Source of the DNA: an uncultured Clostridia bacterium
GTDB lineage: Bacteria > Bacillota > Clostridia > TANB77 > CAG-508
Assembly (NCBI GenBank): GCA_947623725.1
Contig: CANQHI010000010.1
Coordinates: forward strand, 7,130-39,129
Reading direction: 5' to 3'
DNA: 32,000 bases
Positions 12,728 to 31,007 of this stretch are shown piece after piece. Below the pieces are notes generated by a model. It saw only the letters and a program-made list of their open reading frames with translations. It searched no databases and was not told the DNA's origin. Position numbers and translations under genes: made by a program. The number at the start of each line of letters is the position of its first letter. Position 1 is the stretch's first letter.

Positions 12728-13258
12728 ATGAAGGTTGAACAAATAAATTCTGTTCAAGAGTGGTTGCCTTTTGCAGAGATTTTAGATAAAGGAATTATAA
12801 AAATGAAAGATTCCTCCTATATAAAAATTCTAAATATAAATCCAATAAACTATATTCTAAAATCTAGTTTAGAAAAAGAGGCAATTTTAAATTCTTATAA
12901 AAATTTATTTAAAAGCTGTGATTTTAATTTTCAGATTATGATTCAAAGTCAAAAAGAGGATTTAAAAAATCATATCAATAAATTAAATGAAAATAATTTA
13001 TATCCAGAAATTAAAGAAAAATATATTAATTATATAAATTATTTTGTAAAAAATAAAAAATCCTCTAATAAAAAATTTTATCTAATATTAAAAAGTCCAC
13101 TATCTGAAGAAAATGAAAGTGTAAAAATACAAAATTTAGAAAATAATTATTTAAAAATTAAAGATTTATTCGGAAGATGTGGAAATATTGTATCTGAATA
13201 CACAGAAGAAAAGCAAATTATAGATGTTTTATATTCATTTTTTAATTCAAATAAATAA
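12728..13258 (+). CDS. VirB4/TcpF/Orf16-type T4SS ATPase, N-terminal fragment (ends at an in-frame TAA)
   Basis: 176 aa. EWLPFAEILDKGIIKMKDSSYIKILNINPINYILKSSLEKEAILNSYKNLF..FQIMIQS follows the N-terminal pattern I recall for Gram-positive VirB4 homologues (LPY...GII...Y.K...N...EQE.IL...QI.I). Same reading frame as the next ORF. Confidence 0.7.
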   Translation: MKVEQINSVQEWLPFAEILDKGIIKMKDSSYIKILNINPINYILKSSLEKEAILNSYKNLFKSCDFNFQIMIQSQKEDLKNHINKLNENNLYPEIKEKYINYINYFVKNKKSSNKKFYLILKSPLSEENESVKIQNLENNYLKIKDLFGRCGNIVSEYTEEKQIIDVLYSFFNSNK

Positions 13259-13270
13259 ATAACAAAAGAG

Positions 13271-15028
13271 GTGATATTTATAGATAATTATATAGGAGGA
13301 ACATTTAATGATAAGGATTATTTAAGTCCATCTTATATAAACTTAAATAATCCAAAATATATTGAAATTGATGGAATATACTATTCAAGTTTATTAATTG
13401 TAAATTATATAAGAGAGCAGAATGATTTAATTTTTCAAAATATAATTGATACAGATGAAAATATTTATATATCAATATATTATGAAAAACAAGATACATA
13501 TAAAGTTATAAAGGATTTAACATATAATATTGGAAATGTTGGAGTTGATTTAGAAAAAATAGGAAAAGCAAGGCAAGATTATGAAATTGCAGCCTTTACT
13601 TATAATGATGCAAAATATATTAGAAAAGAATTGCAAATAAATAACGAAGAACTTTTATTTATATATACATATGTTACAACTTTTTCGAAAGACAAAAGAG
13701 ATTTAGAAAATAAATTAAATAAAATTGAAGGAATGCTTAGAAGCAAAGGAATGCAATCGAAAAGAGCTTATTTTAGACAAGAGCAAACTTTTAGGACATG
13801 TTTGCCTTTTATGCAAAATGATAAAGATGTAAAAGAGGTTACAAAAAGAAATGTATTAACTAATTCTGTTCCGGCTACTTATCCATTTTTATCATCATCA
13901 ATATTTGATGAAAATGGCATATTTATTGGAACTAATGTATATAATAATTCATTAATTTTTTTAGATAAATATGACAGAAACAAGTATAAAAATTCTAATA
14001 TGTGTATATTTGGAACAAGTGGATCAGGAAAATCATTTTTTACTAAATTAATGATTTTAAGAAATAGTTTATTTGGATTAGAACAATATGTTATTGATCC
14101 TGATAGAGAATATGATGGTATTGCGAAAGAATTAAATGCTTCAATAATAAAAATAGGACCTAGCTCTGAAAACTATATTAATATCTTTGATATAAGAGAA
14201 GAAAGTTTAGAAGATGATCAAAAAGGATATTTATCTACTAAAATAAATAAAATTTTGGGATTTTTTAACTTAATTTTTGGAGAATTAAATGAAGAAGAGA
14301 AAGCTATTTTAGAAGAGAAAATAATAAAAACTTATGAAAAAAAGGGAATAACATTTGAAGATAAAAGCTTATATGAAAAAGGAATATTTAAAAAATCGGA
14401 AGATATGCCAATTTTAACTGACTTATATAATGAATTAGATGGTATTATGAAAATAAAATTAAAACCATTTGTTGAAGGCTCATTTAGATATTTTAATAAT
14501 CATACAAATGTTAGAATTAATGACAAATTAATTATTGCAGATATATATGAATTAGGAGAAGAAAATATTAAATATGGCTTATTTTTATTTACAGAATTAT
14601 TTTGGGATAAAATAAAAAAAGATAGAAACGTAAAGAAAAGTATTTATTTAGATGAGATTTGGCAATTGATAGGAGTAACTTCAAATAAAGAAGTAGCAAG
14701 TTTTATTTATAAAATATTTAAAACAATAAGAAAGTATGGAGGAAGTGCTATTGCAATAACTCAAGATGTGTCTGATTTATTTAGTTTAGATAATGGAACG
14801 TATGGAAGAAGCATATTAAATAATTCAGAAATAAAAACATTCTTCAATTTAGAAGAAGAAAATTTAAGAGTATTAGAAAAATACCTAAATATTTCAGAAA
14901 AAGAAAAAATTGAAATTAATTCATTAAGAAGAGGAGAATGTGTTATGTTTGTAGGAAAAGAACATATTTTAGTAAAAGTGGAGTCAGCGGATTTTGAAAA
15001 AGAAATAATAGGAGGTGGTAATAATTAA
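13271..15028 (+). CDS. VirB4/TcpF-type T4SS ATPase, central and C-terminal ATPase part
   Basis: 585 aa. Walker A GTSGSGKSFFTKL (14022-14045), VIDPDREY, Walker B IYLDEIW, AITQDVSD. Only a GTG start is available, and it lies inside an SD-like AAGAGGTGAT. Confidence 0.85.
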   Translation: MIFIDNYIGGTFNDKDYLSPSYINLNNPKYIEIDGIYYSSLLIVNYIREQNDLIFQNIIDTDENIYISIYYEKQDTYKVIKDLTYNIGNVGVDLEKIGKARQDYEIAAFTYNDAKYIRKELQINNEELLFIYTYVTTFSKDKRDLENKLNKIEGMLRSKGMQSKRAYFRQEQTFRTCLPFMQNDKDVKEVTKRNVLTNSVPATYPFLSSSIFDENGIFIGTNVYNNSLIFLDKYDRNKYKNSNMCIFGTSGSGKSFFTKLMILRNSLFGLEQYVIDPDREYDGIAKELNASIIKIGPSSENYINIFDIREESLEDDQKGYLSTKINKILGFFNLIFGELNEEEKAILEEKIIKTYEKKGITFEDKSLYEKGIFKKSEDMPILTDLYNELDGIMKIKLKPFVEGSFRYFNNHTNVRINDKLIIADIYELGEENIKYGLFLFTELFWDKIKKDRNVKKSIYLDEIWQLIGVTSNKEVASFIYKIFKTIRKYGGSAIAITQDVSDLFSLDNGTYGRSILNNSEIKTFFNLEEENLRVLEKYLNISEKEKIEINSLRRGECVMFVGKEHILVKVESADFEKEIIGGGNN

Positions 15029-16196
15029 AAGAATAGTTACTGCAATAGGGGATTCAAAATTAAATGATGAACTAAAAAATGAAAATTTAGAAGTAGTATG
15101 TGGGGATATTTTATATAAAGAGGGAATTTTAGAATTTTTAGAAGAAAATAAAAATGTAGATTATATAATTATAAACGAAAATTTATCTGGAAATATAAAA
15201 TTAATTGAATTATTAGAAAAAATAAAAAATATAAATAATAAAATAAAAATAATATTAATATCAAAAAATAATTATAATAATAAAGAAATATTAAAAAATA
15301 TTTATAAAAAAATAGAAAATATAAATAAAAATGAAATTATAAATATTATTTCAAAAAAAGATAGTGTATATAATAAAGTAACTATACCAATAAATGATTT
15401 TTTTTATGAAAATACAAAAGATGGAAAAATAATATCTATTTTAGGACCTAATGGAGTAGGAAAAAGTATTTTTTCGATTACACTAGCTAATAATATAAAT
15501 GATAAAAAAATATTAATAATTGATTTTGATGCATTTAATGAAAGTATTTATAATTTACTTGGAATAAAAAAAGAAAAAATTAATATTCAAGAAAAAAATA
15601 ATATTATATTTCAACAAAAACTAAATAATTATGAAAATAATTCAAAAAAATTAAAAAAAATAAATAATTTTAATGGTGAAAAATATTTTGAAGTAAAAAA
15701 TTTAATTATAAAATCTAAATATAATATAGATTTATTATCAGGAATAAATATAATATTTAATTTAAATTATCAAATTAATCCACAAAAATTAATTAATATT
15801 TTAAATAATTTAAAAAGAGAATATGATTATATAATTATTGATACTTCATCAGATTATTTATTAGAATATACATCTGAAATAATAAAAATATCAGAAAATA
15901 TAATTTTTATATCAGGTTCAAATTTATTAGAAATTAAGAAAACTCAAAAATTATTAGATATTTATATTGAACAATATAATATTCAAAAAGAAAAAATAAA
16001 TATTATTTTTAATAAATGGAATAAAAATTCAATAGATGATGGAGTTTTAAGAGAATTATTTAGAGATTATAATATTTTAGGAAAAATAAAATTAAGTGAT
16101 TATTATGATTTAGCAATAAATAGAAATAATATCAAAAATAAAAAAATTGAAAAAAATATAAAATATATTAGGAGAAAAATAGTTAGGCGAAAATAA
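15015..16196 (+). CDS. TadZ/CpaE-like protein: N-terminal receiver-like (pseudo-receiver) domain + ParA/MinD-family ATPase
   Basis: 393 aa. N-terminus has an alternating beta-alpha pattern (IVTAIGD, VDYIIINENL, IKIILIS) with no obvious phospho-acceptor context. ATPase part: ISILGPNGVGKSIFS (15444-15467), LIIDFD, Walker B YDYIIIDTS. Overlaps the VirB4 stop by 14 nt. Confidence 0.65.
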   Translation: MVIIKRIVTAIGDSKLNDELKNENLEVVCGDILYKEGILEFLEENKNVDYIIINENLSGNIKLIELLEKIKNINNKIKIILISKNNYNNKEILKNIYKKIENINKNEIINIISKKDSVYNKVTIPINDFFYENTKDGKIISILGPNGVGKSIFSITLANNINDKKILIIDFDAFNESIYNLLGIKKEKINIQEKNNIIFQQKLNNYENNSKKLKKINNFNGEKYFEVKNLIIKSKYNIDLLSGINIIFNLNYQINPQKLINILNNLKREYDYIIIDTSSDYLLEYTSEIIKISENIIFISGSNLLEIKKTQKLLDIYIEQYNIQKEKINIIFNKWNKNSIDDGVLRELFRDYNILGKIKLSDYYDLAINRNNIKNKKIEKNIKYIRRKIVRRK

Positions 16197-16200
16197 AAAA

Positions 16201-16254
16201 ATTAAATAAAAATAAAAAATTAAATAAAAATAAAAAATTAAATAAAAATAAAAA
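16201..16254 (+). repeat. Three perfect tandem copies of an 18-bp unit (attaaataaaaataaaaa) inside an A/T-only spacer
   Basis: Units at 16201-16218, 16219-16236 and 16237-16254 are identical, followed by a degenerate fourth copy from 16256. The spacer 16197-16340 has almost no G/C. Confidence 0.85.
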
Positions 16255-16351
16255 AATTAAATAAAATTAAAAAATAATAAAAATTAAATGGAAATAAATA
16301 AAAAGTAAAAAATAAATTAATAAAAAATAAATAAAATAGAAAGGAGAATAT

Positions 16352-17068
16352 TTGGAACTAACAAATACAATAGAAAATAATATTTCTAATGAATTAGTAA
16401 CAGAAAATACACAAAATAAATTTTTAAATTCGACCTTAGGAAAAGTAATAAACTTTGGATTAGATACAGGAATAAGAGCACTTTTACCAGATTTAATTGA
16501 GAATCAAGTAATAGATATTAAAGATGCAATTTTAAATAATGGTTTTTCTGCAGGAATAAAAAAGGCAATTTCATCAGCTATAGACTTAGGAAAAAGTGCA
16601 TTAGGAATTGTTACAGGAAAATTTGACAATATAGAGCAAGCGAGAACAGTAGTAAAATCAGGAGGATTGTTAGATAATATATCAAATTTATTAGATAAAG
16701 GAATTAATTTAGTAACTAAATCTGGTAAAATTCCAACAGAAATAGGAAATATTATTAGTAAGGGTAAAAATGTTATTTTAGATACAATTAGCAATAATAT
16801 CGAAGAAAATTTCGACACACAAATCAATTCAATACAAAGATTGAGCAAATATGCAGGAAATTGGAAAGATTATTACAAAAATCAGAATTTTACTGGAATG
16901 GAAAAAGAATATAAAAAAATTGAAAATACAATAAAAGATATATTACCTCTGGAAAATACTATGAGAGAAATTAGACAAATAGAAAATTTACATACATTAA
17001 TAAAAAATAAAAATGGTAATTTTGACCTAACTAAAGAGGAAATTGAATTAGCCAATAAATTAATGTAA
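16352..17068 (+). CDS. Hypothetical soluble protein, no recognised domain
   Basis: 238 aa, TTG start 5 nt after SD AAGGAG. No hydrophobic helices or signal peptide. Gly/Ile/Asn-rich N-half, charged helical C-half. Confidence 0.6.
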   Translation: MELTNTIENNISNELVTENTQNKFLNSTLGKVINFGLDTGIRALLPDLIENQVIDIKDAILNNGFSAGIKKAISSAIDLGKSALGIVTGKFDNIEQARTVVKSGGLLDNISNLLDKGINLVTKSGKIPTEIGNIISKGKNVILDTISNNIEENFDTQINSIQRLSKYAGNWKDYYKNQNFTGMEKEYKKIENTIKDILPLENTMREIRQIENLHTLIKNKNGNFDLTKEEIELANKLM

Positions 17069-17094
17069 ACTAAATGTCCGTAAGAAAAGATTAT

Positions 17095-19009
17095 GTTACA
17101 AGATAATGGTTTTTATAAAGAAAAATACTGAAAGTTAGTTGTTGTAATGGTTCTGCAATAAAAAATTAATATATTTTTTTCATAATTATTTTTTCAAAAA
17201 ATGTTACATTATATGAAAAGCTTTAATTTGAGTATATTTACTTAATTAAGGCTTTTTTATGTAATTTTCAATTAAAAAAACAAAAAAATAATAATTTAAT
17301 CTGTATATCGTTTTTAATGCTGTAATTTTCTTGTAACGCTATTGAAACGTGCATTTTTAAAGAATATGTAGTATAATTATCACATCAGAAAGGTGGTGAT
17401 TTTATATGATATATTCTGAAAAACAATATAAGGAATTAGAAGCACAATTAAAAAAATTAAAAAAAGAAAATGAATTAAAAGATAGAGAAAATAAATTATT
17501 AAAACAACAAAATAAACAAAAAGATGAAATAATATATGATTTAGATAAAAATAATTATAAAAGACAATGTGAAAGTTTAAAACAAGAAAATATAGAACTC
17601 AAAAAAAAACTAAAGATATACGAAGAAAAATTCGAGATGCAGAGAATCAGCTTAGAAAAAAATAGCAGTAATAGTTGCAAGCCATCATCAACAAATGGCT
17701 TAAAAAAAGTAGTTCAAAATAATCGTGTAAAATCAGGAAGAAAACCAGGGAGAGAAAAAGGACACTTAAGATCAGCTCCAACAGTAAGTAAAACACCAGA
17801 TAAAGTTATTAATGTGTCAAAAGTAGCAACATGTATATGTGGAGAAAAAACAAAAGAAAGAGAAGAAATATCAAGAGATTTAATATCACTAGAAATAATA
17901 GTACATACAACCCAATATAGAGGAAGAAAAACAGTATGTCCAAAATGTAAAAAAGAATATATGCCAAAATTTCCAAAAGAAGTAAAAAACACAATAAATT
18001 ATGATGAAGCAATAAAAGCATTAGTAGTATACTTAAATTCATATTGTAATGTACCAAATCAAAAGACAGTAGAGCTTATAAGTTTATTAAGCAAAGACAA
18101 AATAAAGATGAGTCAAGGAACAGTAGGGAATACAATTTCACAATTCAGTAAAAAAAGTAAACCAATTCTAAAAAAGATGAAACAAGAAATCTTAAAAGCC
18201 CCAGTAATAAATGAAGATGAAACACCAATAAAAGTTAATGGTAAATTTATGAGTGTAATAGGAGTATTTACAAAAGGAATATCCGTACTAGAAGCATTTG
18301 AGCATAGAAGTCTTGAAAGTTTTAAAGAAATGGGGATATTGGATAGATATATAGGAACAGTATGTCATGACCATAATAAAATACATGATTCATTTACACA
18401 ATCAAAACAAGCAGAATGCAATTTTCATATATTAAGATATTGTAAAGGAGAATATGAAGTACATAAAAGAGAACCCATAAAAAATTTTATGGATTATATG
18501 TTAAGGTTGAGAGAAAAAGTAGATGAATATAAAATAGAAGGAAAAACATCATTCACTGAAAAAGAGTATAGTGAAGCAAAAAGAGAATATTTAGAATTGT
18601 TAGATAAATGGGATAAAGAATTCAAAAAAGAATATGATTATGATAAAAAACAATATTATGATAGTGAAAGATGTTTAAAAGCAAGACTAAGAGAACGAGT
18701 AGATGATCATTTAAGATTCTTAAGGGATTTTCGAATAGATTTTACAAATAATTTAGCAGAAAGAGGATTAAGAAAAGTAAAAACGAAAATAAAAATAGCA
18801 GGAGGATTTAGAAAATTAGAATTTTCTAGATATTATTGTGATGCAATAAGTATAATAGATACATGTAAAAAGCAAAGTAAAAATATAGGGGAAACAATAG
18901 AACATATATTTAGAGGAAAGAAAAAAATATTTGCATTTTAAAAATAAGCGAGCCTTCCTATCTCAAGGAAAGCCCGTTATTTTTTTATTTAAAAGTATTA
19001 TCTAGTAAC
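17095..19009 (+). mobile_element. IS66-family insertion sequence (single-ORF type), 1915 bp, with 8-bp target site duplication
   Basis: Left end gttacaagataatggttttta (17095-) versus reverse complement of right end gttactagataatactttta (-19009): about 17/21 matching. Flanked by identical AAGATTAT at 17087-17094 and 19010-17. An 8-bp duplication is the IS66-family norm. Confidence 0.8.
17406..18941 (+). CDS. IS66-family transposase
   Basis: 511 aa. N-terminal coiled coil, zinc-finger cysteines (CICGEK ... CPKCKK), NEDETPIKVNG, CNFHILRY, and the family-typical TNNLAERGLRKVKTKIKIAGGFR. Confidence 0.88.
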   Translation: MIYSEKQYKELEAQLKKLKKENELKDRENKLLKQQNKQKDEIIYDLDKNNYKRQCESLKQENIELKKKLKIYEEKFEMQRISLEKNSSNSCKPSSTNGLKKVVQNNRVKSGRKPGREKGHLRSAPTVSKTPDKVINVSKVATCICGEKTKEREEISRDLISLEIIVHTTQYRGRKTVCPKCKKEYMPKFPKEVKNTINYDEAIKALVVYLNSYCNVPNQKTVELISLLSKDKIKMSQGTVGNTISQFSKKSKPILKKMKQEILKAPVINEDETPIKVNGKFMSVIGVFTKGISVLEAFEHRSLESFKEMGILDRYIGTVCHDHNKIHDSFTQSKQAECNFHILRYCKGEYEVHKREPIKNFMDYMLRLREKVDEYKIEGKTSFTEKEYSEAKREYLELLDKWDKEFKKEYDYDKKQYYDSERCLKARLRERVDDHLRFLRDFRIDFTNNLAERGLRKVKTKIKIAGGFRKLEFSRYYCDAISIIDTCKKQSKNIGETIEHIFRGKKKIFAF

Positions 19010-19156
19010 AAGATTATTATAAATATTTAATTTTTATATTGCAAATTATTAAAAATAGATGTAAAATATATAGCATATAAATATAAAATAATAATTAATA
19101 TTCTTTATTTTAAGTTATTAAATATTATTTATTTTTAGGAAAGGAATGATATAAGA

Positions 19157-22100
19157 ATGAAGGAGTTTATTAAGAAATCTTTTCTTATTTTACTTATTTT
19201 AAGTGTTTTTTGTACGAGCTTTGTTTTTGCAAAAGAGGATGTATCATATCAATATAATAATGAAAATATAGAGACAGTTGGTAAAACAGAAAATTCAGAA
19301 AAAAATGAAGAAGAAAAATCTGTTCCTACTACAGAATTTATTATTGAAGATAATAAAGACGAAAAATCTTTAGATAAAGACACAAGAATCCCAAATATGA
19401 ATTCCGGAATAGCTACTATTGCAGAAGGAATTACTTCTGTTGATAGCAATTTTACAACAAAAACATTAAGTGATGGAACATTATCAATAACTGGTTATAA
19501 AGGAGATGTTGATATATTAAAAATACCATCACAAATCAATAATAAAAATGTTACGGAGATAGCAGCACAAGCATTCTATAATATGACAACATTAGATAAA
19601 GTTGTTATTCCTGCTACAGTAAAAACAATAGGTGATTATGCATTTTATTATTCACATAATTTAAACGATGTAACATTAAATAGTGGTCTTATAACTATAG
19701 GCAATAGTGCATTTAGATATACAAGTATTTATAGTATTACAATACCAAACACTGTAAAAACTATAGGAACTTATGCTTTTTATGATTGTTTTCTTTCAAA
19801 TACTTTGACTATACCAGACTCAGTAGAAACAATAGGAAATTGTGCTTTTGCAGATAATTATGGATTAACAAAAATATCTTTAGGAAAAAATTTATCTAGT
19901 TTAGGAACTAATGTTTTTTATGAGAATCCTAAAATTGAAAGCTATAGTGTCAACTCTGAAAATAAAAATTTTTCTGTAGAGAATGATGTTTTATTTAATA
20001 AAAATAAATCAGAATTAATTTTATATCCATCAGCAAAAGCTGATACTACATATCAAATTCCAAGTTCAGTAAAAAAGATAAAAGAAACAGCTTTTTATGG
20101 AAATAAAAAAATAACAGAAATAACAATGCCAGATAATCTTACAGAAATAGAGACAGGAGCATTTGTTAATTGCACAAGTTTAAAAAAAGTAACTTTAAAT
20201 AAAAACTTAAAGTCAATACCAGATTATGCTTTTAATAATACTGGAATTGAAGATATTAATATACCAGCGAGTGTAACATCATTAAATTCAATAGCCTTTA
20301 TAGGAACAGCTACATTAAAAAATATAAATATTGATCCAAATAATTCTGTATATAAAAGTGATAATGGAATAGTCTTTTCAAAAGATGGAACAAAATTATT
20401 AATGTATCCAAGAGGAAAAACAGATGCAAGCTATGCAATACCAGATACAGTAAAATCTATTGGAGAAAGTGCATTTATTGATGCAAATGTAACATCTGTT
20501 ACTATACCAAATGGTGTAACCAGTTTAGGAGATTGGTGTTTTTCAAGAAGTAAACTTACATCAATAGTTCTTCCAAGTAGCATTACATCAATGGGAAATG
20601 GATCATTTGTTGAATGTAAAGATATGGTAAGTGCTAAAATAGATGCTAATGTAAAAGTACTTCCTTATGAAAGCTTTTTTAAATGTGAAAAATTAAAAGA
20701 AGTTACATTTAACAATAACATAGAAGAAATTAGCAATTTAGCATTTGCTTTATGTACTAGTCTAGAAAGTATTACACTTCCAGAAAGTTTAAAAAGAATT
20801 GAATATGGATTTGAAAAATGTAGTGGAATAAAAAGTGTAGTCATTCCAGCTGGAGTGGAGCATATTTCAGAAAGCTCATTTGATGAATCGACAAATATAG
20901 ATATTTCAAAAACAAAGTTAAAGAAATTAGACAATGGTGCATATGCAATTATTTATGATGTATATTTAACAGGAACATTCTATTATGACAAGGCAAAAGA
21001 AGTTTTTGATCAATTAAATCAATATAGACAAGAAAAAGGTTTATCAACTTTAACATTAGATCAAGATTTATTTGCAGCTGCTATGGAAAGAGCAAAAGAA
21101 ACTGGATTGTATTTTGATCATGGTCGTCCAAATGGAACAATGTGCTATACAGCTTGCAGTAAAATGGATGCTGAAAATATAGCAGCAGGTTCATCAACAT
21201 CAACAGGTGCAATGAATCAATGGAAAAACTCTCCAGGACATAATTCTAATATGTTAAATGCAAGTTGGAAGAGTGTAGGAATAGGTTGTTATTGTACTAA
21301 TGGAGTATATTATTGGGTACAATGTTTCTCATCAGAAGCCGGAAATAGTCAAAATGTAATACCAAATAATAAAACAGAAAAACAAAAAATACAAACATTA
21401 GATGACAAGATAGATTTTTATTATAGAGATAGTAAAGATATATCATTATTTGAAGGAGAAACTACAAATTTAGGAAACATATATACAGTAAATACAGGAT
21501 GGGAATTAGTTATAACTCTTCTAGAAAAAGAAAGTATGCAATATACAAGCAGTAATACAAGTGTTGCTACAGTAGATAATAATGGAAAAATAACTGCTGT
21601 AGGAAAAGGAAAAACTGTAATAAAAGCATCTATTGGAAGTAAGTCTTTAGATATAAATTTAACTGTAAATAAAAATATTCCAGACTATGGAAAAAAAGTA
21701 ATAACAGCAATAGAGAAAGAAGGAACAAATTATACAATGAATGTATTAATGTCATCAAACAATCCTTCAAATGGTAATGCAAATATATTAACAAGAAAGA
21801 AAGTTGTAGAGTTATTGCAAGCTAAATGCAAGCAAAATGGAATAGTAAGTAAAATATATAAAACAGATGGTAGAACAGAAATAACGAAAGATACAGAACA
21901 AGTTGGAACTGGATATAAAGTAAAATTATCAGATGGAAATGAATTAACTGTAGTAATGTATGGAGATGTAAATGAAGACGGAATGATTGATACAAGTGAT
22001 ACAGTTTATATAGCAGAATACAATGTAAGAAGGAGAACATTAGATAAGTATCAAATAAAAGCAGCAAAATTGACCGATGATAGTGAAAATGTAGATACAA

Positions 22101-22210: not shown

Positions 22211-22253
22211 TCATTATTAATGAATAAAAATAATATGAAAATTTAAAATAAAA

Positions 22254-22301
22254 AATGAACCTGAAATGTTAGAAAAATAACACATAAAGGTTCATTTTTT
22301 T
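22254..22301 (+). terminator. Terminator after the LRR protein gene
   Basis: Stem aatgaacct (22254-22262) / aggttcatt (22288-22296), followed by a T-run. The loop is long (25 nt). Confidence 0.5.
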
Positions 22302-22377: not shown

Positions 22378-24873
22378 ATGGACGAAAATGAAGGAACAGA
22401 AAATAATCAAGAGAAGATAATAAATAGAGATATTCAAGATGAAATGAAAACTGCGTACATTGATTATGCTATGAGTGTTATAGTTCAACGTGCTTTACCA
22501 GATGTTAGAGATGGTTTAAAGCCTGTTCATAGAAGAATTTTATATACAATGTATGAAGATGGATTGACAACAGAAAAACCATATAGGAAATCTGCTACCA
22601 CCGTTGGTGACGTTTTAGGTAGATATCATCCACATGGAGATTCATCTGTTTATGATGCAATGGTAAGACTTGCACAAGATTTCTCACTAAGATACCCATT
22701 AATTGATGGACATGGAAACTTTGGTTCTATTGATGGTGATGGAGCTGCTGCATATCGTTATACTGAAGCAAGAATGTCAAAAATTGCAGAAACAATGCTT
22801 ACAGATATTGAAAAAAATACAGTAGACTTTATGCCTAACTTTGATGGAATAAGACAAGAACCAACTGTTTTGCCTGCTAAACTTCCAGCATTACTTGTAA
22901 ATGGATCTTCAGGAATTGCCGTAGGTATGGCAACTAATATTCCTCCACATAACCTAAAAGAAGTTTTAAGTGCAGTAGTTAAAATGGTTGAATATAAAGA
23001 AAAAGATGAAGAAATTTCTGATGAAGAACTTTTAAAAATAGTAAAAGGACCAGATTTCCCAACAGGTGCTACTATTTTAGGAAGAGAAGGAATAAAGGAA
23101 GCATATTTAACAGGTAAAGGAAAAATAATTTTAAGAGCAGAAGCAGAAATTGAAGAAATGCAGGGAAATAAACAAAGAATTATTGTTTCTTCATTACCAT
23201 ATCAAGTAAATAAAGCTAAACTTATAGTAGATATTAATCAATTAGCTAGAGATAAGAAAATTGAGGGAATCTCAGAAGTAAGAGATGAATCTGATAGAGA
23301 AGAAAAAGTTAGAGTTGTAATTGAATTAAAGAGAGATGTAAATGCTAGAGTTATTCTAAATAAATTATATAAAAATACACAAATGCAAAACTCTTTTGGA
23401 ATTATAATGTTAGCTCTAGAAAATAATGTTCCAAAAATATTAACATTAAGAGAATGTTTAGATAATTATATTAAACACAGAAAAAATATTATTATAAGAA
23501 GAACAAAATTTGACTTAGATAAAGCATTAGCTAGGGCACACATATTAGAAGGATTAAGAATAGCTATTGATAATATTGATGAAGTTATTAGAATTATAAG
23601 AAATTCTTATGATGATCCAAAAGAACAATTAATGCAAAGATTTGGATTAGATGATATTCAAGCACAATCAATATTAGACATGAGATTAAAAACATTATCA
23701 GGTTTGCAAAGAGAAAAAATAGAAGAAGAATATCAAGAACTAATGAAATTAATAGCACATTTGAGAGAAATTTTAGCAGATGAGAAATTAGTTGATGATA
23801 TAATTAAAGAAGAATCTCTTGAAATGATTGAAAAGTATGGCGATGAAAGAAAAACAAAATTAGTTGCAGCAGAAGATGAGTTTGAAGATGAAGACCTTAT
23901 TCAAGAAGAGCAAACAGTAATTGCTTTAACCCATTTTGGATATATTAAAAGAATGCCATTAGATACATATAAGAGTCAAAGAAGGGGCGGAAAAGGAATA
24001 ACAGGTATGACAACAAGAGAAGAAGACTTCGTAAAACAAATATTTACTGCTTCTACTCATGACATTGTATTATTCTTTAGTAATAAAGGAAAATTGTATA
24101 AATTAAGAGGATTTGAAATTCCAGAGGCAGGTAGAACTACTAGGGGCACTGCAATTGTAAATCTTTTATCATTAGAAGGTGGAGAAAAAATAACAGCAGT
24201 TATTCCAATAAAAGAATTTAATGAAAATCAATTCTTATTAATGGCAACAAAACAAGGATTAATTAAGAAAACACCATTAATTGAATACAACTCAGGAAAG
24301 AAAACTGGATTAATTGCAATAACTCTAAAAGAAGATGATGAATTAATTGATGTTAGATTATCTGATGGAAATAACAATATCGTAATGGTTACTAAAAAAG
24401 GAATGAGTATAACATTTAGTGAAAAAGATGTAAGGCCAGTGGGAAGATCAGCACAAGGTGTTATAGGAATGAGACTTGATAAAGAAGATGTAGTTATTGG
24501 AATGGAATCAATTAATGAAAATGATAAAGAAACACTACTTGCTATTACAGAAAATGGATTCGGAAAAAGAACAGAACTTGAAGAATATAGAGTACAAACA
24601 AGAGGCGGAAAAGGAGTAATAACATATAAGGTAACACCTAAAACTGGAGACATTGTTGGAATTAGAATAGTTGATGAAGAAGATGATGTTTTAATGATTA
24701 CAGATGGAGGCATTGTAATTAGAATTAAAGCTAATGAAATAAGTGTTTTAGGAAGAAATACTCAAGGAGTAACTTTAATGAGAACATCAGATGGCGGAAA
24801 AGTTGTTAGCATAGAGAAAGTTCAAGAAGAAAAAGAAGTTGAAGAAATAGTTGAGGACAAAAAACAAGAATAA
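22378..24873 (+). CDS. gyrA: DNA gyrase subunit A
   Basis: 831 aa. [43 protein letters not shown], active-site [12 protein letters not shown]-terminal beta-pinwheel repeats, acidic tail. Confidence 0.97.
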
Positions 24874-24989: not shown

Positions 24990-26000
24990 TTAAGCTTTAA
25001 TTTTTTTCTTTATTCTAATATCATCTCCAAAAAAGTAACAAGCATTATAATTACCTATAATTCTAGAAATTATGCGTTCTTCATAAATATCATACATATC
25101 TTGAAGTGAAAGATTTGTTGAAATAATAGTTTTTGTAATTTTATTTGATTGATTTAGAAGTCTATTATTAATAATATTAAATAGCTCCGTATTTTTTAAG
25201 CTATTAATTGTTTCAGTTCCTAAATCGTCTATAATAAGTAAATCAACAGAATTAATAACATTACATATATTTTTATCTGTTTTTCCAAATTTATAATCAA
25301 TAATACTATCAAGCATTATAGGAGCAGTCTGATATAAAACAGTTTTTCCTCTTGAAATTAATTCGTTACTTATACAAGAAGATAAAAATGTTTTACCAAG
25401 TCCGGGACTACCACAAAATAATAGATTTAATTCATCAGGAGAATCAAAGTTTTCTATAAAATTATCACAAATTTCTTTAATAGCTATCATATTTTGTCTA
25501 GGAGAAATATCTTTGTTATATTTCTCTTTATCAACAATATCAGAATAGAAATCTAATTTAAAATTTTTAAAAGTTTGATTTCTTAAATCATAAATATTAG
25601 CATTATTATATTCCATATTGTATAATTTTTGCTTTATACAATTACATAAAGAAGATTTACCATTAGGTGATTTTACATAACCGGTATCATTACATTTATT
25701 ACATTCAAATTTAGGTTCTAAATCCTTAGAAGAAAGATTATGATTTTTTAAAATTTGTAATCTTTTTTTTCGCAAATCAGAGATTTGTTTTTTTAAATCA
25801 TCTATAATTTTTTTATTGTTTTGAGAAGTCAAGACTAATTTTATAGATTTTATAGATAAAGAATTTATATCATTATCAATCTTTTCTAATTCAGGTATTT
25901 TATTATATATATCAATTTTTTGTTGTCTTGCCTTAAAAATAGCCGAAGATCTCTTTTGATTATATTCTATTAAAAGAGATTTTAGGTTGTCAGTGTTCAA
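24990..26000 (-). CDS. DnaC/DnaI-like helicase loader (IstB-like AAA+ ATPase with N-terminal zinc motif)
   Basis: 336 aa. CNKCNDTGY...CNC cysteine cluster, Walker A GSPGLGKTFLSSCI, Walker B LLIIDDLGTE. Confidence 0.85.
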   Translation of the reverse strand: MNTDNLKSLLIEYNQKRSSAIFKARQQKIDIYNKIPELEKIDNDINSLSIKSIKLVLTSQNNKKIIDDLKKQISDLRKKRLQILKNHNLSSKDLEPKFECNKCNDTGYVKSPNGKSSLCNCIKQKLYNMEYNNANIYDLRNQTFKNFKLDFYSDIVDKEKYNKDISPRQNMIAIKEICDNFIENFDSPDELNLLFCGSPGLGKTFLSSCISNELISRGKTVLYQTAPIMLDSIIDYKFGKTDKNICNVINSVDLLIIDDLGTETINSLKNTELFNIINNRLLNQSNKITKTIISTNLSLQDMYDIYEERIISRIIGNYNACYFFGDDIRIKKKIKA

Positions 26001-26047: not shown

Positions 26048-27001
26048 TTAGATATTGCTATAAAAATTATTTAAGTTATCATATGTTCTTTGAGAAAAGC
26101 TACTCTTTTTATTTTTTTCGGTCTTTTGTATAGGTTTATTTTTTTGATTTTCCATATATACTGTAATTTTATTGACAGTATTTAAGCCTTTTTCATGCCA
26201 GTCAGATAAAAGTTTATCGATATATTCAAAACTTGGATTAAATTTAGAAGTAGTCTTTTTTAAAGCAAGTTCAATTATATCCATTTCATAACCATAAGTA
26301 ATTGTCCATTTTGAAACATAAGCTTCTTCATATTCTGATAAATTTCTAGATAATCTTAGTTTTTTCTTAATAATATTAGCTATAGACTTTACTTTTTCTT
26401 GCTTTTGATAGTATAAATCTAAATCAGAAAAGGTTTTTATATTATTTTTATTCCAAGCCTCTGCAACAGTAGATATATAAGATCTATGTAAAGCTGATTT
26501 ATTGAAACAATATCTAAATAAAGCTATCATAACTTCTTCATCAAATCCGTATTTTTTAAACCATAAGTCAATATCTCCATACCAAGATGGTGACATCACT
26601 CCTTGGAAAAATTCGTTATTGATTGTTTCAATAGCAGTTGCACGACTTTTACTGTCTGCAATTTTCTTTAAATCAGTAGAAGATAATGAAACTTTAGGTT
26701 TGTAAACTTTATTAAGTTCAATATCTTGGAGATTTGCAACGATAAATCCTTGATTTTTTCTAATCAGCAATCCAATATCTTCCCAATATTTTATACCATC
26801 TTGAATTATTTTTAATGGAAGTTCTAATTTCTTAGATAAATCATTTATTTTTATATCTTTATTATATTTTGATAAGAAAAATAAATATAAATAGATCTTA
26901 ACATAATCACCATTTGCTTGTGATAAATATTCTGTAAAAAATACATCTGGTATATTAGTTTGAGAAAATATTAATGATGAATCGTTTTGTTCTAGTTTCA
27001 T
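26048..27001 (-). CDS. DnaD-domain replication protein (B. subtilis DnaB/DnaD-like)
   Basis: 317 aa with two DnaD/DnaB_2-type repeats: MIALFRYCFNKSALHRSYISTVAEAWNKNNIKT and IIELALKKTTSKFNPSFEYIDKLLSDWHEKGLNT. Confidence 0.8.
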   Translation of the reverse strand: MKLEQNDSSLIFSQTNIPDVFFTEYLSQANGDYVKIYLYLFFLSKYNKDIKINDLSKKLELPLKIIQDGIKYWEDIGLLIRKNQGFIVANLQDIELNKVYKPKVSLSSTDLKKIADSKSRATAIETINNEFFQGVMSPSWYGDIDLWFKKYGFDEEVMIALFRYCFNKSALHRSYISTVAEAWNKNNIKTFSDLDLYYQKQEKVKSIANIIKKKLRLSRNLSEYEEAYVSKWTITYGYEMDIIELALKKTTSKFNPSFEYIDKLLSDWHEKGLNTVNKITVYMENQKNKPIQKTEKNKKSSFSQRTYDNLNNFYSNI

Positions 27002-27060
27002 ATTTATTAATCTCCATTTCGTAAAGCTTAAAAGACTTATCTGCCTCTTTTGTAAATCAA

Positions 27061-27089
27061 ATTATATCATTATAAATCGGCTTTTACAA
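27061..27089 (-). promoter_or_regulatory. Candidate promoter for the DnaD-like gene, abutting the TcpE-like stop codon
   Basis: On the minus strand: TTGTAA (27089-27084), 17 nt, consensus TATAAT (27066-27061). Confidence 0.5.
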
Positions 27090-27368
27090 CTATTTATATA
27101 AATAAATTTTGGGCTTAAAAAAATATTTTATAATATAAAATAAACAGTATAATATATTTTCATGATTAAATCCGATTATACTAAAAAGAAAAATTGGAAA
27201 ATAGAATATGACAATAAATATAATTTTTAAATTTAAAGATTTAAAAATTGTATTAAAAATAAAAAATATAAACAAAAAATAAATTATGTTAAAAATCATC
27301 GTTGGATAATCAATTATACCTAAAATCTTATTTTTAAAATTATAATTTGTTGGAAAAATATATTTCAT
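27090..27368 (-). CDS. Small two-helix membrane protein, TcpE/Orf17 (VirB3-like) candidate
   Basis: 92 aa. N-terminal YIFPTNYNFKNKILGIIDYP followed by two hydrophobic helices and a C-terminal KPKIYLY. This matches my recollection of the TcpE-family pattern. Position in a T4SS block. Confidence 0.5.
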   Translation of the reverse strand: MKYIFPTNYNFKNKILGIIDYPTMIFNIIYFLFIFFIFNTIFKSLNLKIIFIVIFYFPIFLFSIIGFNHENILYCLFYIIKYFFKPKIYLYK

Positions 27369-27410
27369 ATTAAATAAGTCCTTTTTAATTTTTTTTTAAT
27401 TACTAAAAAA

Positions 27411-28277
27411 TTATTTTTTTAGCATTGACATAATATTTGTGAATCTACCAGAAACATCAACACTTAATCCACCGAATATTTCTCGAACATAACTGTTAAT
27501 TTTAGTCAATAACAAAATTCCAGAAACAATTAAAATTTTATTTTGTTCATCTATTGAAAAAATAATCATAATAATTAATGGAAAAAAAGATTGAAGTATT
27601 AGTAAAGAAAATAGACATTTTGCCCATGAACGAAAAATCCACATTGTTGAAGAATTGATTAAGCTAAGTAAAGCAAATGGTGAAAAGAGGATAAGTACTT
27701 CTACTAGTACATATCGTAAGGAATAAGTAAAAAGTAAGTTGACTAAACCAATACTAATAAAACTTTTAAGTATACCATCTAATGAAAATATATCTAATGA
27801 AGATGATCCGCCTATGGATATAGTAGTATTTAATTTTGAAACTAACTCAGAAAAAGATATTTCAGAACCTAATATATTTTTTCCGATTTCTTGAATAGAT
27901 GATGAAAATAGATTATTTATATAAAGAACTTTTTCCATTAAAAAATATGAAAAATTAATTAAAATAGAAAAAATTAATAATTTAAAAATAAATTGATATG
28001 GTTTTTCGATATTTGATTCTGTAAAATGTGAAAGATAAAATTTAACACAATAGAATATTGTAATACCAAGTAAAAGGGCATCAGTTATATATAAAAGTCC
28101 ATTTTTTCCATTTAAGCCAAGAACTTTTTCAAAAAAAGAATTAGATAAAATGCTTGAATCAATAAATGCTACTCTATCTAAATTAGCATATATACTATTA
28201 TCTATTGAAGAAAAAACATTGTTAAAAATTGTATTAATTGTTTCTATAATTAAATCAATAATTTCAGATTGTTCCAA
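27411..28277 (-). CDS. Polytopic membrane protein, VirB6/TrbL-like (start revised to TTG at 28277)
   Basis: About 288 aa with 5-6 hydrophobic helices. SD AGGAGG (28287-28282) sits 4 nt before in-frame TTG. The 43 extra N-terminal codons in the ORF track are Y/F/I-only translation of the A/T-only spacer. Confidence 0.6.
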   Translation of the reverse strand: MEQSEIIDLIIETINTIFNNVFSSIDNSIYANLDRVAFIDSSILSNSFFEKVLGLNGKNGLLYITDALLLGITIFYCVKFYLSHFTESNIEKPYQFIFKLLIFSILINFSYFLMEKVLYINNLFSSSIQEIGKNILGSEISFSELVSKLNTTISIGGSSSLDIFSLDGILKSFISIGLVNLLFTYSLRYVLVEVLILFSPFALLSLINSSTMWIFRSWAKCLFSLLILQSFFPLIIMIIFSIDEQNKILIVSGILLLTKINSYVREIFGGLSVDVSGRFTNIMSMLKK

Positions 28278-28495
28278 ATTTCCTCCTAAAAAATACAAAT
28301 AAAAATAGTAAATAAAATAATTAATTATAAATAAATAAAAATAATAATAAATAATTAATAAGTAATTAATAAAATAATGATAATAATAAAATAAATAATA
28401 AATCAAATAATTAAAATAAAAAATAAAAACAAATAATAAATAAAATAATAAAATAAATAATTAAATAATAATTTAAAATAAAAATAAATTTAATT
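28278..28495. repeat. A/T-only low-complexity spacer
   Basis: About 215 nt of aaataaaataat-type sequence with a handful of G/C, A-rich on the + strand, between two minus-strand T4SS genes. Confidence 0.75.
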
Positions 28496-28927
28496 TTAAA
28501 TCAAAGATTTAATTGCTTGTAAAATTAAATCTAAGGCAAGTAAAAAAGCATAAGAAAATAAAGAGCCTTTTATTATTTTTTTTGCAGTTCTAATTCGTTC
28601 CTCATCTCCAAAACTAAATTTTTTCATGAAAACTCCAACACCGACAGCTACTGCAGCAGCCGGAGTGGCTAATTTCAAAAACCAATCTTCAATATTTTCA
28701 AATGCTTTTGTTAAAGTATTTACGATTTTTGGAGTCGCGGCAAATGTTTTTTTTTGGAAAAAAATTATTGGAAATATAATAAATAATATAAAAAATATTT
28801 TTTTAATAATTATTTTATTATTTTGATAAAAAAAGTGAATTTTTTTGCTAATTTGATTAAAAAAATGATTTTTTTTATATTTTTTTATATTAAATTTATT
28901 AATTTTCTTTATTTTATAAAAATTCAA
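28496..28927 (-). CDS. VirB2/TrbC-like pilin-type protein
   Basis: 143 aa, TTG start 8 nt after SD AAGGAGG. Long basic N-terminus, hydrophobic leader ending TFA-ATP. Then two hydrophobic helices (PAAAVAVGVGVF and SLFSYAFLLALDLILQAI) separated by a charged loop. Confidence 0.55.
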   Translation of the reverse strand: MNFYKIKKINKFNIKKYKKNHFFNQISKKIHFFYQNNKIIIKKIFFILFIIFPIIFFQKKTFAATPKIVNTLTKAFENIEDWFLKLATPAAAVAVGVGVFMKKFSFGDEERIRTAKKIIKGSLFSYAFLLALDLILQAIKSLI

Positions 28928-28977
28928 TTAAATAACCTCCTTAAGTACATAATGATTTTTCGTTAAAAAATTATAAT

Positions 28978-30646
28978 TTATTTTTCTTCATTTTTAAAAT
29001 AAGGTATCATTTTTAATTTCATAGGTTTAAGGATTTTTGATCCATCTGATAGAAATGCTAAAGATTTAAAAGTAGTTAGTTCTTGAGTAAAAAATTTGTA
29101 ATCGTATTTGAAATCAAATTGAGTGTATGAATTAACACTTTCAGAAATATTTGAGTCTATAGAAACAAAGTTTTTAGCAAAATAATTATAAAAACTTTCT
29201 TTAGAGTTTTCAGAAAAAGATTTTGATAGCTTTTCTTTTTCTTCTTTTCCAATTTGTTTTTGAATATCTTCAATTGTAAAAATATCATCACATCTAAACC
29301 ATATTTTATTTACTAGGTTTTGAATAATTACCTTTGTAGAGTATTGGTTATTTAAAGTATTTAGTATAGATGTATAACTTTGAGTTGCAATAATATTAAT
29401 ACATTTTGATTCTCTACTTTGTGAGAAAAATGAAGCATCGGAAGAAGTGACATATTCTTGATATTCGTCTGATATAAATACAGAAGGTTTAATTTGTTTA
29501 TTTTTTTGAGATAATTGTTTTAAAATATCAGTTTGATAGTCAAGCTTTAAATAGGTTGCTATAATTTTAGATAAATTCTTAAATTCAGATATATTCATAT
29601 TTAAAACTACTATTTTTCCATTTTTTAAAACATCTTCAAATCCAAAAAAACTTTCATTTTCTTTTGAAGGACAAAAAGTGTTTTTTACATCTAGACTGGA
29701 AACAAAACAATTAGTTATTCTTGTTATTTCAGACTTTAGAAGATTATAAGTTCTATCGTCTAGAGAAAAGTAATCTTTTTCTAAAATATTTATTGAACTG
29801 TATAAGTCAAAAATATTATCTTTTGTCAATTTATTAGATAAAAACTTTTTTCTGGCTATAGAGATTTTTTCTTCAAAGTAAGATTTATCAATAACTAAAT
29901 TATGTAGTTCTTCAAAAGTAACATATCCATCATTGTAAATTCTACAAAACTTTATACAAGCTTCTAAAATTTGTTCTGATTTATCTAACCAATAAGATTC
30001 AGAGTTATTGGGGGAAAATAACATTAATATTTCTTTTAATCTATTGGCAAGAACAGAAGCTTTTAAGTTAGGCTTGTCAAGTGGATTGTATGTATACTTA
30101 CCACCGAAGTTCTATTATAATTACATCATTCAATCTATGAAATTCTTTTGCAAATTCTAAAACTTTTAGATAATAATTTCCTTTAACATCTAGTATTAAA
30201 AAGCTTAATTTATCACTATTGTATGAATTATACTTCATAAGCTGTTTTGTAAAAGGATATAATGCTGATGAAGTTTTTCCTGAACCTATTGTGCCCGTAA
30301 TTAGAATATTTTGATATAAACCTTTCTCTGGAATATATATCTTATTATCATTTTCATCTGTACCAACTAAAATGCCAAATGTAGGGGCATGTTTTTGAAT
30401 TATGGATTTGTTCTTTTTTATTCTAAAAAATGAAAACCAAAAAAGAGTTAGGAAAATTGTAGAAAATATTGAGGTAATTATGAAAACGATTTTAGTAATA
30501 TTCCATAAAAATGGGTCTTGTAATAGAAAATTAAATATCTTAAAATGACTGTAATAGCTTATATTATAAGATGTTAATATGGATTTATATAAATTAATTT
30601 CTAAAAAAGTTATGATGAATGAAAATATTATAGGTAAAAAATACAA
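28978..30646 (-). pseudogene. VirD4/TraG-type type IV coupling protein interrupted by a frameshift near 30100-30110
   Basis: ORF 30646-30098 has two N-terminal TM helices plus Walker A GTIGSGKTSS (about 30272-30295) and ends ...DVIIIELRW*. The downstream frame is open from 30111 as NFGGKYTYNPLDKPNLKASVLANRL... and continues through Walker B VFISDEYQEY and IIATQS. Removing the single C at 30106 (5th of the nine nt cac cga agt, 30102-30110) restores ...IIIELGGKYTYNPL. Confidence 0.8.
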
Positions 30647-31007
30647 TGTAGATTATTAAATTTCCTCCTTCTGTGTTAATTTCAGTTTTAGTTTTGAACC
30701 TTGCATATTATGAAAAAATAAAATTTGAATAATACTGTAAATTGAACCAAAACTTATGAGACAATTGATTATTAGATTTATAAAAAATAAATCAATAAGT
30801 GTTAAAATATATAATCACTCCTTCCAATATCTACCATTATACAACATATTTTTTATTTTGTCTATACTTTTTTGAAAATTTATGATAAAATATTTTAAGT
30901 TACTAAAAACATATTTTTAAATATGAAGTAAAGGTTTATAGGTAAAACCATAAAAACCTAAATATTATAAGGAGTATAAGATGATAAAAATCATCTAAAA
31001 TAAAGAT

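Follow-up and report, generated by a model that had tools for sequence, protein, structure and literature searches.

A type IV secretion gene set, divided around gyrA and with no relaxase gene at the locus, is conserved beside the replication origin of uncultured gut Clostridia

In a 32,000-nucleotide stretch of DNA from an uncultured Clostridia bacterium (contig CANQHI010000010.1, positions 7,130 to 39,129, hereafter the window), genes of a type IV secretion system (T4SS) lie in two opposed blocks around gyrA and the helicase-loader genes dnaD and dnaI, as a first-pass annotation had proposed from the letters alone, and profile hidden Markov model (HMM) searches recovered every gene that it named. 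The set amounts, at the level of sequence, to a complete inner-membrane T4SS core (VirB3, a two-piece VirB4 and VirB6) accompanied by a VirB2-like subunit and a type IV coupling protein (T4CP), all of them intact or recodable and conserved together. We consider that it is probably a domesticated, vertically inherited T4SS of monoderm (MPF-FATA-derived) type that has become part of the core genome. Since it is permanent and strongly conserved beside the origin, it most likely serves the cell itself and not the spread of an element. The plus-strand block, or VirB4 module, contains the following features:

12678 to 12706, plus strand: promoter-like site TTGACA-17-TAAAAT (11/12 consensus matches), 22 nt before the module's first gene
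12728 to 13258, plus strand: VirB4 N-domain protein (VirB4N, TrsD/TraC-like, 176 aa), matching an NCBIfam VirB4 model
13271 to 15028, plus strand: VirB4 ATPase (VirB4C, 585 aa), identified by Pfam P-loop_TraG, NCBIfam and a PDB profile
15015 to 16196, plus strand: ParA/MinD-family ATPase of 393 aa with an N-terminal extension of ~130 aa
16352 to 17068, plus strand: orphan, a conserved all-helical soluble protein of 238 aa, last gene of the module

The VirB4 that had been placed at 12728 as a single gene is present, but as two genes. The product of the first matches positions 1-147 of the NCBIfam model conju_CD1110, its orthologues carry the Pfam TraC-like domain PF26593, and its family HMM matches the N-terminus of the fused VirB4 proteins of two related loci, L088 and L083 (a Vescimonas plasmid). 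VirB4C covers positions 186-731 of the same model with 294 bits, below the equivalog cut-off of 325 bits, and matches Pfam P-loop_TraG (E 1.3e-21), while its family profile finds the VirB4 ATPase domain structure PDB 4AG5 with an E value of 9e-50. Both its Walker A (GTSGSGKS) and Walker B (IYLDEIW) motifs are invariant across the family, which counts more than 5,900 homologues, the best 120 of which are all ~585 aa long and 67-100% identical. An exact look-up of the window VirB4 gave no match, probably owing to its GTG start, and genomic context was therefore taken from relatives. In the window the two genes are divided by an in-frame TAA; they are separate open reading frames (ORFs) in 71/71 loci that hold both, with relative frames and gaps that vary from locus to locus, which points to an old gene fission rather than a nonsense mutation. 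Separate VirB4N and VirB4C ORFs also occur in mobile relatives, and a layout of TrsD plus VirB4 has been reported for the pGO1 subclass and for Patescibacteria (PMC12102498).

In related loci the place of the ParA-like gene is taken by a ParA/TadZ-like gene, with genes for a TadA-like T2SSE ATPase and TadB/C-like proteins after it, and the window protein resembles TadZ/CpaE in being a ParA/MinD-family ATPase with an N-terminal extension. We do not name it TadZ, because its profile returned generic ParA/MinD structures from the PDB and no TadZ; a receiver-like N-terminal domain has weak support (Response_reg, E 0.009). The orphan has 1,743 homologues and an AlphaFold2 model with a pLDDT of 77, and gave no consistent match in Pfam, NCBIfam or PADLOC, nor did its model match any structure in the PDB or BFVD. 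It is confined to chromosomal versions of the system, where it invariably closes the VirB4 module.

The second block is read from the opposite strand:

30836 to 30864, minus strand: promoter-like site TAGACA-17-TATAAT (11/12 matches), upstream of the T4CP block
28978 to 30646, minus strand: VirD4-type coupling protein (T4CP) in two frames, identified by Pfam, transmembrane (TM) helices and Walker motifs
30104 to 30109, minus strand: CTT CGG within the T4CP gene, a candidate site of programmed +1 frameshifting; the 0 frame of the gene ends at TAA 30100-30098
28496 to 28927, minus strand: VirB2-like pilin, a 143-aa ORF matching T4SS_pilin (PF18895)
27411 to 28406, minus strand: VirB6/TrbL-like polytopic membrane protein with at least 5 TM helices
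27090 to 27368, minus strand: VirB3/PrgI-like 2-TM protein of 92 aa
27089 to 27061, minus strand: promoter-like site, where the first-pass annotation placed the promoter of the dnaD-like gene

The T4CP matches Pfam TraG-D_C above the gathering score as well as TrwB_AAD_bind; its N-terminal part (30646-30098) contains two TM helices and Walker A, its C-terminal part (30105-28978) contains Walker B, and the family HMM recovers the T4CPs of the mobile loci L088 and L090 with E values of 1e-134 and 1e-153. The pilin matches T4SS_pilin at E 5.7e-5 in the window, and across its family PF18895 is found in 34/35 members and TrbC/VirB2 in 15/35. Its features are a signal peptide, a pair of hydrophobic helices and the charged loop KKFSFGDEERIR, and translation probably begins at an internal position of the 143-aa ORF. 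The VirB6-like gene likewise probably starts near 28274, because its relatives are ~287 aa long. We assign the VirB6-like and VirB3-like proteins with moderate support from sequence comparison: TrbL/VirB6 is matched in 4/36 family members (best E 1.8e-4) and PrgI in 8/38 (best E 0.004). The calls are strengthened by family HMMs that match the expected positions in bona fide T4SS loci, namely membrane proteins at the VirB6 position in four independent loci (L083, L088, L089 and L090) and, for VirB3, the genes that immediately precede VirB4 in L088 and L089 and the PrgI-VirB4 fusion of the Vescimonas plasmid (E 4e-6). Profile searches against the PDB gave no match for the pilin, VirB6-like and VirB3-like families. 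The three promoter-like sites stand where they had been noted; the one at 12678-12706 is a consensus match only, with no statistical enrichment in this AT-rich DNA.

The core genes between and beside the two halves are these:

22378 to 24873, plus strand: gyrA, between the two T4SS halves
24990 to 26000, minus strand: dnaI-like helicase-loader gene, downstream of the T4CP block and in the same direction
26048 to 27001, minus strand: dnaD/DnaB_2 helicase-loader gene, immediately downstream of the T4CP block

At least 578 species-representative genomes (one per species) encode a relative of this VirB4. Synteny was read from the best 80 loci, with denominators counting those whose contig reaches far enough, and all of these genomes are metagenome-assembled; the closest come from uncultured Clostridia of rabbit, mouse, human, chicken and ruminant guts and from Clostridium sp. 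CAG:793. The arrangement of the window recurs in ~80 species-level genomes of uncultured gut Clostridia as gyrB-VirB4N-VirB4C-ParA-like-orphan-gyrA on the plus strand, followed on the minus strand by dnaI, dnaD, VirB3-like, VirB6-like, pilin and T4CP. Upstream, gyrB is present in 65/65 loci; downstream, the orphan follows in 56/56, the ParA-like gene is kept in 54/56 and gyrA is found in 55/56. The minus-strand pair dnaI-dnaD comes next in 48/50, VirB3 and VirB6 follow it in 38/41, and the pilin and T4CP complete the order in all 30 loci that extend so far. Median intergenic gaps of 5-77 nt inside both blocks are operon-like, and the spacer between VirB3 and dnaD has a median of 112 nt.

Pairwise distances between the VirB4C proteins correlate with those of GyrB and GyrA (Spearman 0.84 and 0.86) as closely as the gyrase subunits correlate with each other (0.83), so that VirB4 divergence tracks the gyrase genes, the pattern of vertical inheritance. 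In comparisons of the window with four relatives, dN/dS was 0.02-0.3 for the T4SS genes (0.02-0.14 for the T4CP) and up to 0.57 for the ParA-like gene; the neighbouring gyrB, recF and dnaI gave 0.03-0.24, and the T4SS range matches that of recF, dnaI and dnaD. Purifying selection on the T4SS genes thus equals in strength that acting on gyrB, recF and dnaI, and the catalytic Walker motifs are invariant or nearly so across the families. The earlier suggestion of a reduced, chromosomally fixed and non-conjugative apparatus is borne out as far as fixation and selection are concerned by this comparison of relatives, while the role that it would play is taken up below.

The T4CP gene changes frame within its coding sequence. 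Its 0 frame reads ATA GAA CTT CGG TGG TAA, whereas the +1 frame entered after CTT-C reads GGT GGT AAG TAT ACA TAC AAT CCA and restores the family motif E-L-G-G-K-Y-x-Y-N-P; because Walker A lies upstream and Walker B downstream of the shift, a single polypeptide would be needed for ATPase activity. The CTT CGG site is common to three lineages, the window, L003 and L091 (the last, whose T4CP is 84% identical, found through protein lengths), and 20 other T4CPs are read in a single frame across this position. Between the window and L091, with dS of ~1.2, dN/dS is 0.19 upstream and 0.086 downstream of the shift, and across the frameshift-bearing lineages it is 0.015-0.19 on both sides at dS of up to 1.2. 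The 24 codons from the shift to the first in-frame ATG contain 14 synonymous against 1 non-synonymous change and no +1-frame start codon. CGG itself accounts for 1 of 8,571 codons in the window and 8 of 286,875 codons in conserved genes of the ~80 loci. The classic +1 context pairs a CUU codon in the P site with an A-site codon that is decoded slowly (prfB CUU-UGA; yeast Ty1 CUU-AGG-C), and the T4CP site shares with these the CUU in the P site and an A-site codon that is essentially unused in the clade; it differs in that no Shine-Dalgarno-like stimulator was seen upstream of CTT CGG, and three lineages carry it so far. A metagenome scan for the exact motif gave no match. Taken together, these features indicate that the site is probably a programmed +1 ribosomal frameshift. 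If so, CUU-CGG recoding in a coupling-protein gene would be a rare bacterial +1 event outside prfB, and we know of no frameshift reported for a T4SS coupling protein. The T4CP gene is also broken at other positions in L030 (20813-20861) and L092 (1141-1171), where assembly errors or single-lineage pseudogenes may be responsible.

To place the two halves in a wider context, relatives were taken from a search of VirB4 cluster representatives at 50% identity, which yielded a graded series (percentages give VirB4 identity):

L084 (52%), chromosomal: gyrB-...-VirB4N-VirB4C-x-x-orphan-gyrA, then T4CP-pilin-VirB6-VirB3-dnaD on the plus strand (block 18045-21791)
L089 (49%), nature unassigned: VirB6-x-VirB3-VirB4N-VirB4C-ParA-...-T2SSE, contiguous
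L086 (47%), chromosomal: VirB4C-ParA-T2SSE-x-orphan-gyrA
L088 (42%, VirB4 fused), mobile: relaxase (PF03432) and MobC beside VirB4, VirB3-like directly upstream of VirB4, with a PF18895 pilin, T4CP, M23 hydrolase, VirB6-like gene, ParA-type gene and RcpC
L093 and L094 (33-37%), chromosomal: VirB4N-VirB4C-ParA-T2SSE-T2SSF-like-orphan, in L094 near gidB and parAB
L090 (32%), mobile, with TopB: TopB-T4CP-pilin-VirB6-hydrolase-x-VirB4N-VirB4C, then a complete Tad module

Family HMMs match VirB3, VirB4N, VirB4C, VirB6, pilin and T4CP in L088, L090 and L083, and the nearest plasmid VirB4 is 32% identical to that of the window. The distant chromosomal versions (VirB4 33-52%) keep VirB4N-VirB4C-ParA-...-orphan and adjoin gyrA or lie near parAB; in a rough neighbour-joining VirB4 tree, which is not robust, chromosomal lineages fall on one side and mobile ones on the other. 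The gene orders of the relatives imply an ancestral order T4CP-pilin-VirB6-(hydrolase)-VirB3-VirB4N-VirB4C-(Tad-type genes). In the mobile or contiguous loci L088, L089 and L083, VirB3 immediately precedes VirB4, so the window lineage was split at precisely the VirB3-VirB4N junction, in agreement with the earlier proposal that the halves were once contiguous. The accompanying suspicion that a single inversion would not explain the present order also finds support, because in L084 the T4CP half follows gyrA in plus orientation with dnaD still next to it. This placement of dnaD further indicates that the T4SS block and the helicase-loader genes move as one unit, and co-transcription of the T4CP block with dnaD is possible. 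We provisionally set aside the idea that dnaD and dnaI are replication genes derived from an element, in view of their conservation at core-gene rate and the cysteine-rich, zinc-finger-like motif CNKCNDTG of the DnaI-like protein.

This type of VirB4 is repeatedly linked to Tad-type genes in L086, L093, L094, L090 and L088 (ParA/TadZ-like, T2SSE, T2SSF-like, CpaB/RcpC and prepilin peptidase). The recurrence suggests a hybrid T4SS-Tad ancestral element, of which the window lineage would have kept only the ParA-like gene and the orphan.

Several components of a conjugative element are missing. Pfam and NCBIfam searches of the window ORFs found no relaxase, integrase, VirB8-like gene or peptidoglycan hydrolase, as the first-pass annotation had stated; its further statement that no recombinase is present does not hold, the sole recombinase being the IS66 transposase of a lineage-specific insertion. 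No relaxase, MobC or feature resembling an origin of transfer (oriT) was found in the window or in ~80 related 20-kb loci, and no candidate ORF for a VirB8-like (PrgL/TcpC) protein in the window or the conserved locus, where the gaps between the T4SS genes are too small for further genes. A VirB1-like hydrolase is likewise absent from the window, whereas mobile relatives have M23 or C39-type hydrolases within the cluster.

Several points weigh against the reading of this set as a domesticated T4SS. A VirB8-like protein and a hydrolase are normally required in monoderm T4SSs, and the lack of a VirB8/PrgL-like gene and of a hydrolase in or beside the locus is the main weakness of an interpretation as a T4SS channel; the two would have to be encoded elsewhere or be dispensable, or the machine would have to work differently. 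The relaxase search covered the window and ~80 loci, so that one may lie elsewhere in the genome. The identities of VirB3 and VirB6 depend on weak Pfam matches together with position-specific HMM matches, and the link between the two halves on their co-conservation. Finally, in distant chromosomal relatives the VirB4 module travels with T2SSE and T2SSF-like genes and has no T4CP block within 10 kb, so that VirB4 might serve a Tad-like machine.

The first alternative, that the pore conjugates chromosomal DNA with a relaxase or other enzyme encoded elsewhere, or with none as in the mycoplasma type, is in our view unlikely. The T4CP, a protein that classically feeds DNA-relaxase complexes, is tightly conserved and linked to the pore genes, VirB4C scores 248 bits on the VirB4 model of the mycoplasma integrative and conjugative element (ICE), and the locus lies among DNA replication genes. 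Nothing ties those replication genes functionally to the T4SS genes, however; the hydrolase has been lost, and the relaxase, MobC and oriT-like feature sought at ~80 loci are absent. The mobile L088 carries a relaxase and MobC right beside VirB4.

It is rather improbable that VirB4N, VirB4C, the ParA-like protein and the orphan form an accessory of a Tad-type pilus instead of a T4SS channel, the two halves being functionally separate. The module does continue with a T2SSE ATPase before the orphan in L086, L093 and L094, together with a T2SSF-like platform protein, the mobile L088 and L090 pair the same VirB4 type with complete Tad modules, and TANB77 is reported to have a conserved Tad pilus cluster elsewhere (PMC11680825). 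But the window has no gene for TadA (T2SSE), TadB/C, CpaB, Flp pilin or prepilin peptidase, which sets it apart from Tad systems: its lineage lost the adjacent TadA and TadB/C genes yet kept VirB4. Moreover, no role of VirB4 in Tad pili is known, mobile relatives have VirB3 immediately before VirB4N-VirB4C, and both halves are conserved together in the clade of the window.

A competence-like machine for DNA uptake, comparable to Helicobacter ComB or the crenarchaeal Ced importer, seems more doubtful still. Relaxase-less T4SS derivatives that import DNA are established (Ced is cited in PMC12102498), and T4SS loci of the Patescibacteria class ABY1 sit with comF, recG and radA (PMC12102498). The locus described here contains no com or recombination genes except recF, a normal neighbour of the replication origin (oriC), and its T4CP is among the most constrained genes, whereas ComB has no T4CP and needs none.

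A decaying, rearranged ICE, which the first-pass annotation had entertained, would account for a T4CP out of frame, a VirB4 in two ORFs, an IS66 element nearby and the absence of relaxase and integrase. That the system is a remnant on its way to loss is nevertheless very hard to reconcile with synteny and low dN/dS maintained over ~80 species and with VirB4 divergence that tracks GyrA and GyrB. The supposed signs of decay also fail individually: all members of the clade have the VirB4 fission, which mobile relatives show as well, and both halves of the T4CP are under purifying selection in the three frameshift lineages at dS of ~1.2, so that a conserved frameshift with both frames selected argues further against decay. 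Least credible of all is the anti-phage or anti-plasmid defence module, built from HerA/VirB4-like and ParA-like ATPases, that had been floated earlier, since the weak PADLOC matches of the ATPases to mad8, DndH and HerA reflect generic P-loop similarity, no nuclease, effector or partner gene is present, the membrane and pilin partners are typical of a T4SS, and conservation in the core genome is unlike that of patchy defence islands.

The domesticated T4SS that we favour has its closest apparent parallel in the chromosomal systems of Patescibacteria (candidate phyla radiation, CPR), which are relaxase-less, derive from MPF-FATA, comprise TrsD, VirB4, VirB3, VirB6 and PF18895 pilins and often lie near dnaA, dnaN and rnpA (Quinonero-Coronel et al. 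2025, PMC12102498). That paper reports, through its ref. 37, that the T4SS is essential for epibiotic growth in Ca. Southlakia epibionticum. With these systems the Clostridial set has in common MPF-FATA ancestry, no relaxase found, a separate TrsD-like gene beside virB4, PrgI/VirB3, VirB6 and a PF18895 pilin, as well as a chromosomal, origin-proximal position, vertical inheritance within lineages and hosts with reduced genomes that resist culture. It differs in its host, in a T4CP that is closely linked to the other genes and under strong constraint (its CPR counterpart is mostly encoded at a distance and was not essential), in a single pilin gene in place of an array, and in its two opposed operons around gyrA and dnaD-dnaI with a ParA-like ATPase and a conserved orphan in the module. 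As the host belongs to a Clostridia lineage, membership in the monophyletic VirB4 clade of Patescibacteria is unlikely; a sister relationship remains conceivable. TANB77 has been described as uncultured, low in GC and reduced in genome size, and as carrying conserved genes for a Tad pilus in one cluster (PMC11680825); what was published as the TANB77 'pilin' cluster is a Tad pilus locus, distinct from the locus described here. If the window belongs to TANB77, the pairing of an adhesive pilus with a T4SS would mirror that of Patescibacteria.

Among Firmicutes, the set resembles MPF-FATA systems (pGO1 TrsD/TrsE, C. difficile CTn2 CD1110/CD1115 and Vescimonas fastidiosa pMM35_02) in the match of VirB4N and VirB4C to conju_CD1110, in a T4CP of VirD4/CD1115 type and in the order T4CP-pilin-VirB6-...-VirB3-VirB4 of its relatives. 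Unlike those conjugation systems, it has no relaxase, hydrolase, VirB8-like protein or adhesin, is not mobile but fixed in the core genome, and encodes a VirB4 at most 32% identical to any plasmid VirB4 and below the equivalog cut-off of the model. An integrase was not found, and wherever a locus offers enough sequence, core genes flank the set and the order is unchanged. The 'type IV-C' T4SS of the Streptococcus suis 89K island, with VirB1, VirB4, VirB6 and VirD4, is credited with protein secretion and is likewise a small monoderm set with VirB4, VirB6 and VirD4; 89K is a mobile pathogenicity island that has a hydrolase and no VirB2-like pilin, whereas the present set is core-genomic, without a hydrolase and with a pilin.

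PF18895 pilin genes occur in the mobile relatives L088 (13080-13478, with a relaxase), L090 (6700-7038, with TopB) and L083 (10580-10900, on a Clostridia plasmid), none of which has the outer-membrane core genes VirB7, VirB9 or VirB10 near virB4. Monoderm MPF-FATA systems are said to lack VirB2 homologues, and the pilins of Patescibacteria have been suggested to be co-opted from diderms (PMC12102498). The presence of VirB2-like pilins in relaxase-bearing relatives without VirB7, VirB9 and VirB10 near virB4 therefore bears on the origin of the Patescibacterial pilins.

One paper assigns CAG-793 to Firmicutes_A, and the group to which the window and Clostridium sp. CAG:793 belong is probably the GTDB order TANB77 (family CAG-508). 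We envisage that an ancestor of this low-GC group of gut Clostridia captured the genes of an MPF-FATA mating pore beside oriC, and that the relaxase, the cell-wall hydrolase and any integration functions were then lost. The remainder would have become two small operons, each behind its own promoter: VirB4N-VirB4C-ParA-like-orphan in the interval between gyrB and gyrA, and T4CP-pilin-VirB6-VirB3 upstream of dnaD-dnaI. From the genes themselves we infer a channel in which VirB3, VirB6 and the two-piece VirB4 ATPase would make up the translocon in the membrane. The VirB2-like protein, which bears a signal peptide, would build a short filament or conduit at the surface, and the membrane-anchored T4CP would recruit and energise the substrate, with the ParA/MinD-type ATPase and the helical orphan acting as positioning or assembly accessories. 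Such a machine would not spread an element; when cells touch, it may transfer protein, or nucleic acid bound by protein, in either direction between them, as has been suggested for the T4SS of Patescibacteria.

The window has a GC content of ~23% and spans the replication-origin region of a Firmicute chromosome: mnmE-jag-yidC-yidD-rnpA is read from the minus strand, followed by dnaA, dnaN, recF and gyrB in plus orientation, and the GC skew switches near 6 kb. Further features outside the system are:

12589 to 12621, no strand assigned: terminator-like hairpin and T run, 3' of gyrB, dividing gyrB from the VirB4 module
17106 to 22262, plus strand: lineage-specific insertion (5.16 kb) with an IS66 transposase and a surface protein
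17406 to 18941, plus strand: IS66-family DDE transposase, within the insertion
19157 to 22210, plus strand: BspA-type LRR/CAP/Big_2 surface protein of 1,017 aa with a dockerin-like C-terminus, within the insertion

The insertion is missing from the closest relative, L003, and L004 has an LRR gene at the same spot without the insertion sequence. The spacer between the orphan and gyrA exceeds 500 nt in 24% of loci, which suggests that insertions recur there. Neither Rfam nor tRNA scans of the window gave a match. The 23% GC raised the possibility of genetic code 4, which was rejected, as the long ORFs are intact under table 11 and require no in-frame TGA. The stop codons of 21 window genes are TAA in 19, TAG in 2 and TGA in none, with no in-frame TGA either, a sample too small for a conclusion. 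In L001 (GCA_948524275.1), dnaA is called as two overlapping ORFs of 166 and 294 aa (3331-4666), probably through a frameshift or assembly error, and 1.5 kb between gyrA and dnaI (16281-17821) holds no called gene; the equivalent spacer in the window is ~100 nt.

Exapted T4SSs are well known in Proteobacteria, while among monoderms Patescibacteria (2025) have provided the one broad case described to date; we found no prior description of this T4SS in Clostridia in the literature. What is new with respect to the Patescibacterial case is the phylum, the linked T4CP, the split around gyrA and the ParA-like and orphan genes. The system would be a second, independent-looking, relaxase-less monoderm T4SS fixed in a core genome, splitting the near-universal gyrB-gyrA pair in at least several hundred species, and it offers a defined set of seven genes, including a conserved protein of no known family, for metatranscriptomic and structural follow-up. 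More speculatively, and with low confidence, these gut Clostridia may depend on a core T4SS that, together with a conserved Tad pilus, supports a contact-dependent life on other cells in parallel to Patescibacteria; the T4SS and VirB2-like pilins of Patescibacteria may descend from this Clostridial MPF-FATA subclass, and one sublineage may set its coupling-protein output by a programmed +1 frameshift at an unused CGG. The host lineage is abundant, uncultured and resident in the gut, and TANB77, to which it probably belongs, has been linked to immunotherapy response in published work; for such reduced-genome bacteria, the T4SS is a concrete candidate for how they interact with their neighbours or their host.

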